From NCBI GenBank assembly GCA_025454445.1, contig JALOOK010000018.1, forward strand, positions 1 through 16,558: a stretch of 16,558 nt of DNA. Direction: 5' to 3'. A model generated the notes under the pieces. The model was given only the letters and a program-made list of their open reading frames with translations, made no database searches and was not told where the DNA came from. This stretch comes from Oscillatoria sp. Prado101 (GTDB taxonomy: Bacteria > Cyanobacteriota > Cyanobacteriia > Cyanobacteriales > Oscillatoriaceae). The translations under genes and the position numbers were made by a program. This document shows positions 5,148-8,499 of this stretch, one piece after another (position 1 is the first letter of the stretch; every line of letters begins with the position of its first letter).

Positions 5148-7079
5148 CTAACGGAAGCGAATAGTCCGCAGGACTTCTACTAGGGTGTCGATTTCCTGAC
5201 AAGTGTTGTAAAAAGCCAGCGAAGGACGAACCGTACCCGTCAGATTATACCGCTGCATCGTCGGTTGAGCGCAGTGATGACCGGCACGCACCGCAATCCC
5301 TTCTCGGGCGAGGCGCTGCCCAACTTGTTCCACAGGGATGTCATCCAAAATAAACGACACCACGCTTACTTTGTGAGGTGCAGTACCAATTAGACGCAAC
5401 CCCGGAATCTGCGCGAGGCGTTTTATTGCATACTCGGTGAGTTGGTGCTCGTACCGTTCGATATTGCTCATCCCCAGGCGCGTGATATAGTCGATCGCCG
5501 CACCCAGTCCAACCGCATCAGCAATATTGGGCGTTCCCGCTTCAAATTTTGCCGGTGGTTCGCTGTAAATAGTTCTCTCGAACGTCACATGGCGAATCAT
5601 GCTTCCGCCACCCTGCCAAGGAGGCATATCCTCCAGGATTTCCCGTTTGGCGTACAGGACACCAATTCCCGTAGGCGCAAAGAGTTTGTGACCAGAAAAG
5701 GTGTAAAAATCGCAGCCGATCTCTTGAACATTAACCGGCATGTGAGAAACCGCCTGAGCCCCGTCAACCAGGACAACTGCGCCGTGCCGGTGGGCTATTT
5801 CCGTCATTTCCCGCACCGGCACAATTGTTCCGAGAGCGTTAGAAACCTGCGTGATGCCAACAAGGCGAGTGCGCGGACCCAAGAGTCGGGCGTATTCCTC
5901 TTGCATTATTTCGCCGCTATCGGTGACAGGAATAACCTTTAAAATTGCCCCCGTCTCTTGCGCCAGCATCTGCCACGGAACAATATTGGCGTGGTGTTCC
6001 AGCGTCGAGAGAACAATTTCATCTCCGGGCTGAATGTACTTGCGACCCCAGGTTTGCGCCACCAGATTAATCGCTTCTGTGGTTCCCCGCGCGAAGATAA
6101 TTTCCGACGCCGAACTCGCACCCAGAAACCGCTGCACCTTTTCCCGCGCTCCCTCATAAGCATCCGTCGCCCGCGCCGCCAGAGTGTGAGCGCCCCGGTG
6201 AATGTTGGAGTTGTCTCGCTGGTAGAACAGCGACAGAGCATCGATAACGCTTTGCGGCTTTTGAGTTGTGGCGGCGTTATCCAGCCAAATCAGCGGTTTG
6301 CCGTTGACTTTCTGGTGCAAAATCGGAAAGTCTTTGCGGATGGCGCTGACATCAAAGATTGCCCCCGACTCTAACCCCAGGTTTTCCACCGCAGGGGGAG
6401 ACAGGAAATAGAACGACGGCTGAGGTGTTTCCCGCACCGGCGAATGGCTCGCTTGCGCTCCCGCATCCGCGAAAGCCCTTTGCAAATCCGGCTCGCTGAG
6501 CGGGAAAATAGAAGTTGGCCTTGGAGGCGCGGGAATCGAATTGCCCGGAATTCCGCTGGGGGAAATCTGAGGAATCTGGGCGTACATCTGTTGTGCAACC
6601 TCTTTCAAAGCTTCCACATTCAAGGCATCGCTGGAAGCGGAAGTTGTTGGCAGCGCAACAGCCGTTTCGCGGGAATGTGATCCAGGTTCCAGCTGTGCGA
6701 ATGCCTGAAACAGGTTTGCCTCCAGATTTGCGGTCAACATCTGCGACCGCAACTGTTTGGCCATTGCGGTCAATGCGTCCTCGCTGCCGGCTGATGCCGG
6801 TGCGGAGTGCCCAACTAAGTTCCCAACTAATGCCACCCCACTCATGCCAGAACTATTGATTTCAGACGGCGGAACAGTCCCGATAGTTTCCACTGCCGGC
6901 TGGGTGCCGGCTGGGGCTGCCACACCGCTGCCATTTGGCACAGCGGTATAAAACTGATTCGCGAGCGATTCTACAGACAGCGGGTCAAAGATCGCACTGT
7001 CGCCGGTGGGAGGTAATGGCACATCTTGAGGCGGGTGATGTCCGTTTTTACCGTTATGCGCTGGCATATTGATAGTCAT
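5148..7079 (-). CDS. Class II (SufS/CsdA-like) PLP-dependent cysteine desulfurase with a ~230-aa disordered, Pro/Ser/Ala/Gly-rich N-terminal extension. Predicted encapsulin cargo.
   Basis: The catalytic domain spans roughly 5148-6373, and the low-complexity N-terminal region (no recognisable fold) spans 6374-7079. The domain matches SufS-type enzymes, including the active-site region RAGHHCAQP, the PLP-lysine region FYTFSGHKLFAPTGIGVLY, and TLEHHANIVPWQ. The gene overlaps the upstream shell gene by 26 nt. This architecture matches cysteine desulfurase cargo of Family 2 encapsulins as described in Synechococcus elongatus SrpI/CyD. Confidence 0.85.
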   Translation of the reverse strand: MTINMPAHNGKNGHHPPQDVPLPPTGDSAIFDPLSVESLANQFYTAVPNGSGVAAPAGTQPAVETIGTVPPSEINSSGMSGVALVGNLVGHSAPASAGSEDALTAMAKQLRSQMLTANLEANLFQAFAQLEPGSHSRETAVALPTTSASSDALNVEALKEVAQQMYAQIPQISPSGIPGNSIPAPPRPTSIFPLSEPDLQRAFADAGAQASHSPVRETPQPSFYFLSPPAVENLGLESGAIFDVSAIRKDFPILHQKVNGKPLIWLDNAATTQKPQSVIDALSLFYQRDNSNIHRGAHTLAARATDAYEGAREKVQRFLGASSASEIIFARGTTEAINLVAQTWGRKYIQPGDEIVLSTLEHHANIVPWQMLAQETGAILKVIPVTDSGEIMQEEYARLLGPRTRLVGITQVSNALGTIVPVREMTEIAHRHGAVVLVDGAQAVSHMPVNVQEIGCDFYTFSGHKLFAPTGIGVLYAKREILEDMPPWQGGGSMIRHVTFERTIYSEPPAKFEAGTPNIADAVGLGAAIDYITRLGMSNIERYEHQLTEYAIKRLAQIPGLRLIGTAPHKVSVVSFILDDIPVEQVGQRLAREGIAVRAGHHCAQPTMQRYNLTGTVRPSLAFYNTCQEIDTLVEVLRTIRFR

Positions 7080-8499
7080 AGTAGTATCCCACCTCCACGT
7101 TTTCCAGCACGGCTAGAGCATCATCGGTTAAGACAGCGCAGGAGAAGTACAGCGTCATCAAATAAGACGCCACCGCCTGGGTGTTGATGCCCATGAACCG
7201 CACGGAAAGGCTGGGCATTTGTTCTCCGGGAATGCCCACTTTATGCAAGCCGACAACGCCTTGTTCTTTTTCACCGGCACGCACGAGCAGGATATTCGTC
7301 TTGCCAGGACCATAGGGGTTGCCGGTGCGGTTTTGCACATCCAATTTATCGCAGGGCACAAGTGGCACGCCGCGCCAAGTTATGAAAGGAGATCCGAAAA
7401 TATTGACGGTTGCCGGTGGAACGCCCCGGCGCGTGCATTCGCGTCCGAAAGCTGCAATCGCCCGTGGGTGAGCCAGGAAGAAAGCCGGTTGTTTCCACAC
7501 GCGAGCCAGCATTTCATCTAAATCGTCGGGAGTCGGCGCACCGTAGCGGGGCTGAACGCGCATTGAGGGCGCGGCGGCGTTGAGCAAGCCAAAAGCAGGG
7601 TTGTTAATAATTTCCCATTCTTGCTGCTCTTTCATGCCTTCTACTGTCAGGCGAAGCTGTTCGCGCAACTGGTCGATCGGCTCGTTGTAAATGTCGGTGA
7701 CGCGGGTGTGAACGCGCAAAATCGTTTGGACGAGACTCAGTTCGTACTCTTGCGGTTCGCTTTCGTAGTCCACAAACGAAGCAGGTAACTCAGTTTCGCC
7801 CTCGTAGTCAGCCGCGAGCGCGACTTTTTCTTCCCCGTACAGGTTGAGGAGCGTCTTTAACCGCATGCGATTTTCCACCGCCAGCCGCAAGTTTTCCAGC
7901 ACTGTTGGGGACTGACTCACAACTTGGTCGAAGCAGCCTTTGGAAAGCGTCAGCAACCGGCAAGGGGTGAGGGTGCGAACAGTGGCGTCGCTGGGCATAT
8001 CTTGATAGAGATCGACTTCGCCGAAGTAGTCTCCCGCACCCAGAACGGCAAGGCGCAAGGGTTGGCCTTGTTCGCCCCGCACTAACACTTCTAGTTTCCC
8101 TTGCGCGACGATATAGAATTTGTCGTCTTTTTGACCTTCCGCAACGATGGTTTCTCCCATCCCAAAAGACACGCTCTGGAAGCGGTTGGCGAGCACCGCT
8201 GCGTCAGAAATAGCGATATCTGACAGCATGGGTATTGTCCGCAGGTCTTCTGGAGCGACATTCGAGTAGCCGTTGCTGTTATTGACCCGAACTTTTGGAC
8301 TTTGTTTGAGAACGACTTTGGTGCGGTTGACCCGGTACGTTCCCGATTGCACTTGAACCCAAGGCAAGAAGTGCAGCAGCCACCGGGGTGTAATCCCCGT
8401 CATTTGGGGGACGGTATTCGTCGTGACCGCTAGGTTGCGAGCAACTTGCGTGTCAATGCTTTGTTGCTGCCGGTTTAGATTTGTTGTGATTGTGACCAT
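7054..8499 (-). CDS. Family 2B-type encapsulin shell protein (HK97-fold) with an inserted cyclic-nucleotide (cNMP)-binding domain.
   Basis: 481 aa. Residues ~92-215 (nt ~7855-8226) are a classic CAP-family cNMP-binding beta-barrel, including the phosphate-binding-cassette-like FGEVDL. The rest is consistent with a Family 2 encapsulin. The gene is directly followed and overlapped by the cysteine desulfurase cargo gene, and cysE lies nearby, as is common in Family 2 encapsulin operons. I cannot verify the HK97-fold assignment without a profile search. Confidence 0.7.
   Translation of the reverse strand: MVTITTNLNRQQQSIDTQVARNLAVTTNTVPQMTGITPRWLLHFLPWVQVQSGTYRVNRTKVVLKQSPKVRVNNSNGYSNVAPEDLRTIPMLSDIAISDAAVLANRFQSVSFGMGETIVAEGQKDDKFYIVAQGKLEVLVRGEQGQPLRLAVLGAGDYFGEVDLYQDMPSDATVRTLTPCRLLTLSKGCFDQVVSQSPTVLENLRLAVENRMRLKTLLNLYGEEKVALAADYEGETELPASFVDYESEPQEYELSLVQTILRVHTRVTDIYNEPIDQLREQLRLTVEGMKEQQEWEIINNPAFGLLNAAAPSMRVQPRYGAPTPDDLDEMLARVWKQPAFFLAHPRAIAAFGRECTRRGVPPATVNIFGSPFITWRGVPLVPCDKLDVQNRTGNPYGPGKTNILLVRAGEKEQGVVGLHKVGIPGEQMPSLSVRFMGINTQAVASYLMTLYFSCAVLTDDALAVLENVEVGYYYDYQYASA

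Follow-up and report, generated by a model that had tools for sequence, protein, structure and literature searches.

A probable cysteine desulfurase-loaded Family 2B encapsulin in Oscillatoria sp. Prado101 with an external cyclic-nucleotide-fold domain for which cAMP and cGMP are unlikely ligands

Does a protein that carries a cyclic nucleoside monophosphate (cNMP)-binding fold, and whose gene overlaps that of a cysteine desulfurase, form a shell around this enzyme, and does it respond to cyclic AMP (cAMP) or cyclic GMP (cGMP)? The question is raised by a gene pair on contig JALOOK010000018.1 of Oscillatoria sp. Prado101 (assembly GCA_025454445.1). The window, i.e. the whole stretch of DNA that was analysed, comprises positions 1 to 16,558 of this contig, and the genes and protein features described below lie on its minus strand. 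The pair consists of a putative shell gene (7054-8499, ATG start, 481 amino acids) and a cysteine desulfurase cargo gene (5148-7079, ATG start, 643 amino acids). In our view the pair very probably codes for a Family 2B encapsulin loaded with a desulfurase, from an uncultured Oscillatoria-like cyanobacterium, with an external domain that most likely binds neither cAMP nor cGMP. An earlier note on this DNA, made from its letters alone, had pointed out both open reading frames (ORFs) and an overlap of 26 nucleotides (nt) between them. Both ORFs were found at these coordinates, and the overlap between the 3' end of the shell gene and the 5' end of the cargo gene (7054-7079) is also present in independent JGI gene calls: an identical 481-residue protein occurs on three JGI metagenome contigs, with the same gene pair and the same overlap. 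The 26-nt overlap recurs in close orthologous loci (L001, L002, L007), and it suggests that the translation of shell and cargo is coupled; a GGAGG sequence sits 12 nt upstream of the cargo ATG. A second shell gene, as would be needed for a two-component shell, was sought in the window and none was found, so the gene at 7054-8499 is the sole one.

[quoted passage not shown] In the profile search that had been proposed as a check, it scored 594.2 bits with the NCBIfam equivalog model NF041163 (encap_f2b, curated cut-off 400 bits) and covered model positions 1-449 of 450. The HK97-fold shell body (residues 216-471, nt 7087-7854) corresponds to the Pfam SrpI-like domain (PF19307; 386.5 bits, E-value 5e-116), and the Pfam cNMP_binding domain (PF00027) was found in front of it, at residues 110-196 (74.6 bits, cut-off 27.5 bits, E 6e-21). 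The best sequence matches in the PDB are the 2B shells 9bje and 9bix of Streptomyces lydicus and 9bhu of Streptomyces griseus (E 1e-113 to 1e-123), which are collinear with the query over residues ~10-472, and the next ones are 2A shells, namely SrpI (6x8m, E 5.6e-113), the Acinetobacter baumannii shell 8t6r and the mycobacterial Mmp1. The identity to the solved 2A and 2B shells is 38-59%, and 52-59% in the HK97 body according to the Foldseek alignments. Based on this identity to shells solved by cryo-electron microscopy (cryo-EM), we infer that the protein would assemble into an icosahedral shell.

The comparison with the 2A shells also locates the part of the protein that is peculiar to Family 2B. 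Residues 1-60 (nt 8320-8499), i.e. the N-arm, the N-helix and the first part of the E-loop, are collinear with the N-termini of 2A and 2B shells and align with the 2A N-termini of 8wol, 8t6r and 6x8m at E 1e-10 to 1e-12. The 2A shells match the query in two pieces (residues up to 62 and from 225 onwards), therefore the ~165 extra residues constitute an insertion, situated at the position described for the E-loop insertion of 2B shells. This insertion (residues ~61-225, nt 7825-8319) is composed of a segment that resembles a metal-binding domain (MBD-like), the cNMP-fold domain (CBD) and a linker. No other part of the protein varies as much: the mean identity to 120 homologs is 43-48% in the insertion, 67% in residues 1-60 and 75% in the HK97 body. 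We built an AlphaFold2 model from a 63-sequence alignment, and used it solely for domain-level Foldseek matches and not for pores or interfaces. In this low-confidence model, the insertion is predicted to start with two strands and a short helix at residues 73-86, followed by a beta-barrel. The insertion matches the cyclic-nucleotide-binding (CNB) domains of CAP, protein kinase A (PKA), SthK and MlotiK1, with a root mean square deviation of 1.8-3 A and target-normalised template modelling (TM) scores of 0.78-0.85.

The second gene of the pair encodes a cysteine desulfurase with a long N-terminal extension, which agrees with both statements that the earlier note had made on the cargo, i.e. the enzyme type and a targeting N-terminus of ~230 residues rich in Pro, Ser and Ala. 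The protein scores 806.9 bits with NF041166 (f2_encap_cargo1, [quoted passage not shown]; curated cut-off 800 bits), covering model positions 16-622 of 623, and it also passes the SufS subfamily model TIGR01979 (575.6 bits) and matches Pfam PF00266 with 500 bits. Structures of the SufS/CsdB type match residues 240-640 with E-values down to 9e-175; these matches start at residue ~239-240, and the SufS-type core begins at about residue 240-246. The catalytic domain (nt 5151-6359) contains the motifs SGHK (residues 462-465) and GHHC (residues 600-603). From established knowledge of SufS enzymes, we take Lys465 (nt 5685-5687) to be the residue that binds pyridoxal phosphate and Cys603 (nt 5271-5273) to be the catalytic cysteine. 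The N-terminal domain (residues 1-240, nt 6360-7079) contains 14.2% Ala, 12.1% Pro and 11.2% Ser and is poorly conserved: its identity between orthologous loci is 34-87%, versus 80-96% in the catalytic domain. Composition and poor conservation suggest that it is disordered. The N-terminal domains of SrpI-associated desulfurases conserve two motifs, "LARLANEFFS" and "AASPYYFLDG", and the loading domain of the SrpI cargo was validated experimentally (PMC8049743). Both motifs have counterparts in the Prado101 cargo, LANQFY (residues 39-44, nt 6948-6965) and SFYFL (residues 222-226, nt 6402-6416), respectively, and other loci (L001, L002, L004-L007, L011, L018, L034, L068-L070, L073-L079) likewise show the pattern [FY]YF[LI] in the N-terminal domain of their cargo.

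If the protein is a shell, what could its cNMP-fold domain bind? The earlier note had spoken of an "unmistakable CAP-type" cNMP-binding domain, on account of the sequence FGEVDL (residues 159-164). As far as the fold is concerned this is borne out by the Pfam and Foldseek matches, but as far as the ligand is concerned it probably is not. The equivalent of the phosphate-binding cassette (residues 159-176, FGEVDLYQDMPSDATVRT, nt 7972-8025) was located by MAFFT and HMMER alignments. When aligned by MAFFT with CAP and both PKA RI-alpha domains, the cassette reads F159-G160-E161-V-D163-L-Y-Q-D-M-P169-S170-D171-A-T-V-R175 and is free of gaps relative to PKA. The Gly-Glu pair that contacts the ribose 2'-OH is retained (G160-E161) and T173 is conserved; among 63 sequences F159, G160 and L164 are invariant and E161 is found in 61. 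However, the column that holds R82 in CAP and R209 and R333 in PKA is occupied by Ser170. HMMER pairs the same residue with the Trp of Streptomyces 2B shells, thus the phosphate-binding Arg is absent, yet the Trp that is reported as typical is not in place either. In addition, Ser170 is flanked in the pocket by two acidic residues, Asp163 and Asp171. Since the Arg is replaced by Ser170 and accompanied by these acidic residues, binding of cAMP or cGMP is unlikely, and on this sequence evidence the insertion domain most likely binds neither of them. We speculate that such an acidic pocket might accept a cation or an amine-bearing compound.

The same positions vary among the relatives in a regular manner. 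When the query is added to its 120 closest database homologs, positions 170/171 read S-D in 76 sequences, S-E in 12, R-T in 16 and another R-x combination in 5, and Trp is not found at all. Position 163 follows the same division: Ala163 is present in 20 of the 21 Arg-class sequences, and Asp, Glu or Asn163 in 86 of the 95 Ser-class ones. The three-site switch, A163/R170/T171 versus D/E/N163/S170/D/E171, holds in the same proportions (20/21 and 86/95). A fully canonical FGEIAL..PRTATV cassette persists in approximately 18% of the closest desulfurase-type relatives, and Arg-class shells also adjoin a desulfurase cargo (P0043, P0046 and locus L009). Among representatives of clusters at 50% identity there are several more full-length 2B shells with a canonical GE...PR.A[ST], and more distant ones with Trp. 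The pocket of the Ser-class lineage, as judged from these sequences, looks remodelled rather than decayed. One could go further and propose that the desulfurase-type 2B shells comprise two sensor classes, one with a canonical cassette, candidate for cNMP gating, and one with a charge-reversed cassette (A to D163, R to S170, T to D171), sensing another ligand such as a cation or an amine-bearing sulfur metabolite and so controlling the access to a sulfur store. We put this forward tentatively and rather expect that it will not hold in this form. The split between canonical and charge-reversed cassettes is the sole point of our analysis that goes beyond the literature searched.

Three 2B shells, those of S. 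griseus, S. lydicus and Myxococcus xanthus, have been solved since 2024 (PMC11550324, PMC12407261, bioRxiv 10.64898/2026.07.21.739788). The S. griseus encapsulin Sg Enc, formerly EshA, a protein that was thereby moved from the regulators to the shell proteins, was described in 2024 as a 60-mer with T=1 symmetry, in which the insertion domains are located outside and partly cover large two-fold pores, and in which a Ca2+-binding subdomain precedes the barrel; binding of cAMP was not detected by differential scanning fluorimetry, on cAMP-agarose or by cryo-EM (PMC11550324). The two-component shell of S. lydicus and the geosmin shell of M. xanthus likewise showed no cyclic-nucleotide binding (PMC12407261, bioRxiv 10.64898/2026.07.21.739788). 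It was also reported that CBD-like domains without the phosphate-binding Arg are not cAMP-responsive, that ~9% of the 2B systems carry desulfurases, and that the two-fold pores of the latter may not be open (PMC11550324). The view of the earlier note that the 2B subtype is largely uncharacterised therefore no longer applies to Family 2B at large, with three shells solved and assayed with cAMP, but it still fits the desulfurase-type subclass in the literature searched. Storage of elemental sulfur, without an acceptor, has been demonstrated for the 2A desulfurase encapsulin of A. baumannii (PMC10836720).

It is useful to compare the Prado101 system with these and other relatives. Sg Enc (9BHU, PMC11550324) is collinear over the full length (E 2.5e-113) and shares the cNMP-fold insertion in the E-loop, placed after a segment of two strands plus a helix. 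Its cargo is likewise loaded via a disordered N-terminal domain, but it is a 2-methylisoborneol synthase and not a desulfurase. The position of the cassette Arg is taken by Trp176 in Sg Enc and by Ser170 in the Prado101 shell. In the Streptomyces shells the metal-binding segment contains an acidic stretch, GDGR[IV][DE]F, in place of which the Prado101 shell has QSPKVRVNN, so Ca2+ binding may not be conserved; the text of PMC11550324 names no coordinating residues. The 2A pair SrpI/CyD of Synechococcus elongatus (6X8M, PMC8049743) is 59% identical in the HK97 body, both cargos carry the two motifs, and the SrpI locus likewise has a sulfur-related context that includes a serine acetyltransferase, but SrpI has no E-loop insertion, whereas the Prado101 shell has ~165 extra residues (61-225). 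The 2A desulfurase encapsulin of A. baumannii (8T6R, PMC10836720), the experimental basis of the elemental sulfur storage model, resembles the Prado101 system in the class of its cargo and has a shell homologous to it (E 9e-110), but there the insertion domain is absent, the two-fold pores are closed by N-arms and the partner is a rhodanese. Finally, Escherichia coli CAP and PKA RI-alpha have the same beta-barrel, and the F-G-E...A-T-V frame of the cassette aligns; the differences are Ser170 in place of Arg, Asp171 as the next residue, Asp163 in place of the cassette Ala, and an insertion that has neither a dimerisation helix nor a DNA-binding domain.

The operon belongs to a known, catalogued and widespread type for which curated annotation models exist. 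The 2021 census of Andreas and Giessen listed 199 operons of Family 2B plus desulfurase in 9 phyla, and, among the accessory genes that accompany desulfurase encapsulins in operons, found serine O-acetyltransferase and rhodanese to be the most enriched (PMC8346489). When compared with these catalogued operons (PMC8346489; NF041163/NF041166), the Prado101 locus has the same HK97 body with a cNMP-fold insertion, the same cargo type and the accessory serine O-acetyltransferase, and differs in nothing essential. In our own distribution scan, in which each species was represented by one genome, 79 related loci were retrieved. The closest shells, with 94% identity in Oscillatoria sp. PCC 10802 and 93% in O. 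princeps, precede those of other cyanobacteria, and the more distant loci belong to Spirochaetota, Bacteroidota, Chloroflexota (Ktedonobacter) and to many Kitasatospora and Streptomyces. A desulfurase gene directly follows the shell gene in nearly all of the 79 loci, in at least 7 phyla. One locus, from a Leptospiraceae metagenome-assembled genome (MAG; L008), has two cNMP-fold shell genes (8752-9144 and 10226-10621) upstream of the desulfurase, and is a candidate for a two-component desulfurase-type 2B shell.

By analogy with the characterised relatives, 60 shell subunits would form a T=1 shell of ~24-28 nm, with the insertion domains outside, above the two-fold pores, and the cargo would be captured during assembly via its N-terminal domain, its synthesis being coupled to that of the shell by the 26-nt overlap. 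The encapsulated enzyme would convert L-cysteine to alanine and deposit sulfane or elemental sulfur in the lumen, where the shell would shield it from cytosolic reductants. The neighbouring genes may supply O-acetylserine, import sulfur compounds and oxidise the persulfide that is mobilised. If the insertion domain regulates the access to the pore, its ligand would be other than cAMP or cGMP.

Four other explanations deserve consideration. The insertion domain may have no ligand at all and play a purely structural part, giving the two-fold pore its shape or blocking it to some extent. We regard this as a real possibility, if not a probable one, given that a ligand has been found for no 2B CBD to date and that the domain is the part of the shell protein where variability is greatest. 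The constraint on the pocket is nevertheless lineage-specific, as seen in the conserved positions 159-161 and 164, and the three-site switch looks like the remodelling of a site rather than its decay.

SufS-type enzymes normally work with acceptor proteins, and accordingly the desulfurase might feed a sulfur relay for Fe-S clusters or thio-cofactors via an external acceptor, instead of storing elemental sulfur. This was also the earlier model for 2A systems with rhodanese partners (PMC8346489). We nonetheless consider a relay unlikely in this case: neither a rhodanese nor a SufE/SufU gene was found among the window ORFs tested, acceptor-free storage was shown directly in a 2A system (PMC10836720), and the persulfide dioxygenase encoded nearby fits a turnover of sulfane sulfur.

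A truly cyclic-nucleotide-gated shell, in which cAMP or cGMP would open or close the two-fold pores from the insertion domain, is an idea that the earlier note had raised as a question (pore gating), and it has become improbable for the Prado101 protein. The strong match to cNMP_binding, the conserved FG-E core and T173 are in its favour, and the canonical relatives indicate that the ancestor may have bound cNMP. On the other hand, Ser170 stands where an Arg should hold the cyclic phosphate, a phosphate would be repelled by the neighbouring Asp163 and Asp171, CBD-like domains lacking this Arg do not respond to cAMP (PMC11550324), and 3 out of 3 experimentally tested 2B shells fail to bind it. 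For the Arg-class relatives, cNMP gating is plausible. Finally, a soluble Crp/Fnr-like cNMP receptor or transcription factor is hardly credible, since in spite of the JGI name "CRP-like cAMP-binding protein" for homologs and the molecule name "Crp/Fnr family transcriptional regulator" of PDB entries 9bje and 9bix, the protein has no DNA-binding domain, its C-terminal 260 residues are an SrpI-like HK97 domain (386 bits), the PDB entries so named are cryo-EM encapsulin shells, and EshA itself was reassigned to the shells (PMC11550324).

Returning to the desulfurase-loaded 2B shell with a domain that most likely ignores cAMP and cGMP, there are several points that weigh against this reading, or against parts of it. 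The structure prediction that had been suggested as a check answered in part: the top Foldseek matches to the model are the HK97 encapsulin shells 9bhu, 6x8m, 8t6r and 8wol, followed by many CNB domains, but the model is poor (mean predicted local distance difference test, pLDDT, 59; predicted TM score 0.39), with the N-arm, the linker and some of the body below 50, and for this reason the fold assignment of the shell relies mainly on sequence homology. The conservation of G160-E161 and T173 leaves room for nucleotide-like ligands. No experimental study of a desulfurase-type 2B system was found in the literature searched, therefore the state of its pores and the role of its insertion are extrapolated from terpene-type, xylulose-kinase-type and 2A shells. 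The missing rhodanese counts here as well. The 525-nt gap (4623-5147) between the cargo gene and the next gene, cysE, makes the co-transcription of all six genes of the cluster a proposal, and a sigma-70 promoter scan of 2400-9300 gave 0 matches versus 3.8 expected, although such a scan is uninformative for a cyanobacterium.

The genes that follow the pair are related to sulfur. From 8499 down to 261 all genes are on the minus strand, i.e. shell, cargo, serine O-acetyltransferase, two YeeE/YedE-like genes and a fusion gene. The cysE-like serine O-acetyltransferase (3747-4622, 291 amino acids) scores 248.5 bits with TIGR01172 (cut-off 210.65) and is syntenic in L001, L002, L004 and L007. The two small YeeE/YedE-like sulfur-transport genes (3300-3728 and 2696-3187) match Pfam Sulf_transp (32.2 bits) and DUF6691 (152.5 bits), and are syntenic in L001, L002, L006 and L007. 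The fusion gene (261-2414, 717 amino acids), syntenic in L002 and L007, encodes an FAD/NAD(P)-binding domain joined to an ETHE1-type persulfide dioxygenase. Its N-terminus carries Pfam NAD_binding_9 (PF13454, residues 16-164), for which no solved homolog was found at E<1e-5, and the matches to residues 489-716 include human ETHE1 persulfide dioxygenase (4chl, E 1e-62) as well as 5ve3 and 2gcu. This type of fusion is unusual, as the fusions of ETHE1-type dioxygenases retrieved here are with rhodanese (5ve3). O. princeps and an Oscillatoriaceae MAG have the same gene order, and other loci share part of it. In orthologous loci the gap between cargo gene and cysE varies between about 240 and 660 nt. 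The one in Prado101 includes a direct repeat rich in G (5007-5041 and 5084-5118), and the small ORFs found there and elsewhere gave no family match. In the region 5' of the shell gene (8500-9022) we noted two poly-T runs (about 8632-8657, poly-A on the plus strand) and repeated "GATAAATCGCG...GTACAAA" elements, and neither an Rfam family nor a sigma-70-like promoter was found there. When the whole window was scanned with Rfam at the gathering thresholds, nothing matched, and the long intergenic regions are thus explained neither by a riboswitch nor by another known RNA.

Both ends of the cluster are marked by tandem repeats of ~42-45 nt that belong to one family. Three copies of ~45 nt are located 3' of the last gene (110-242) and four of ~42 nt 3' of the gene upstream of the shell gene (9023-9196); each array lies directly after the stop codon of a minus-strand gene. 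On the transcribed strand, the repeat unit reads GGGUGGG-loop-CCCCACCC and continues into U-rich sequence, so that it consists of a GC-rich hairpin with a U-tail. The folding z-score is -8.8 for the array at 110-242, where 0 of 200 shuffled sequences fold as well, and -2.5 for the one at 9023-9196. The arrays look like multiplied intrinsic terminators: that at 110-242 is a probable terminator, and that at 9023-9196 probably forms the upstream boundary of the unit. The sulfur module thus seems to be bracketed by terminator-like arrays.

The gene directly upstream of the encapsulin (9226-11892, 888 amino acids) encodes a full-length Major Vault Protein (MVP) homolog, with Vault repeats 1-4 as well as the shoulder domain according to Pfam; in phmmer, its residues 17-875 score 1020 bits against mammalian MVP. 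The two neighbouring genes therefore encode giant-shell proteins that are unrelated to each other. MVP homologs in Oscillatoriales have been noted before (bioRxiv 10.1101/872010). A functional link between MVP and encapsulin was considered and rejected, since only the closest relatives (L001-L003, L080, L081) have the two genes next to each other, L007, whose shell is 90% identical, does not, and the hairpin array separates the genes, all of which points to local synteny. Further upstream, the MVP gene is separated from a pentapeptide-repeat gene by a stretch with few ORFs, which contains two inverted repeats (12108-12414), one with arms at 12108-12139 and 12383-12414 that are 88% complementary and one forming a near-perfect hairpin at 12199-12270; they may represent a small mobile element or a structured RNA.

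As the operon type is catalogued, annotated and widespread, a single locus adds little. Its value is modest and lies in giving an entry to the desulfurase-loaded 2B encapsulins, the one 2B subclass not yet studied experimentally in the literature searched. This subclass joins two questions, namely which ligand the external cNMP-fold domains have, and whether shells that retain elemental sulfur close their two-fold pores. The close relatives with the same cargo split into those with an intact and those with a charge-reversed cassette, and this offers a clean experimental handle on the ligand of the domain. If there were indeed two sensor classes, the published view of practically all 2B domains as ligand orphans with Trp at this position would need to be qualified, and the Arg-class shells may be the first truly cNMP-gated encapsulins.

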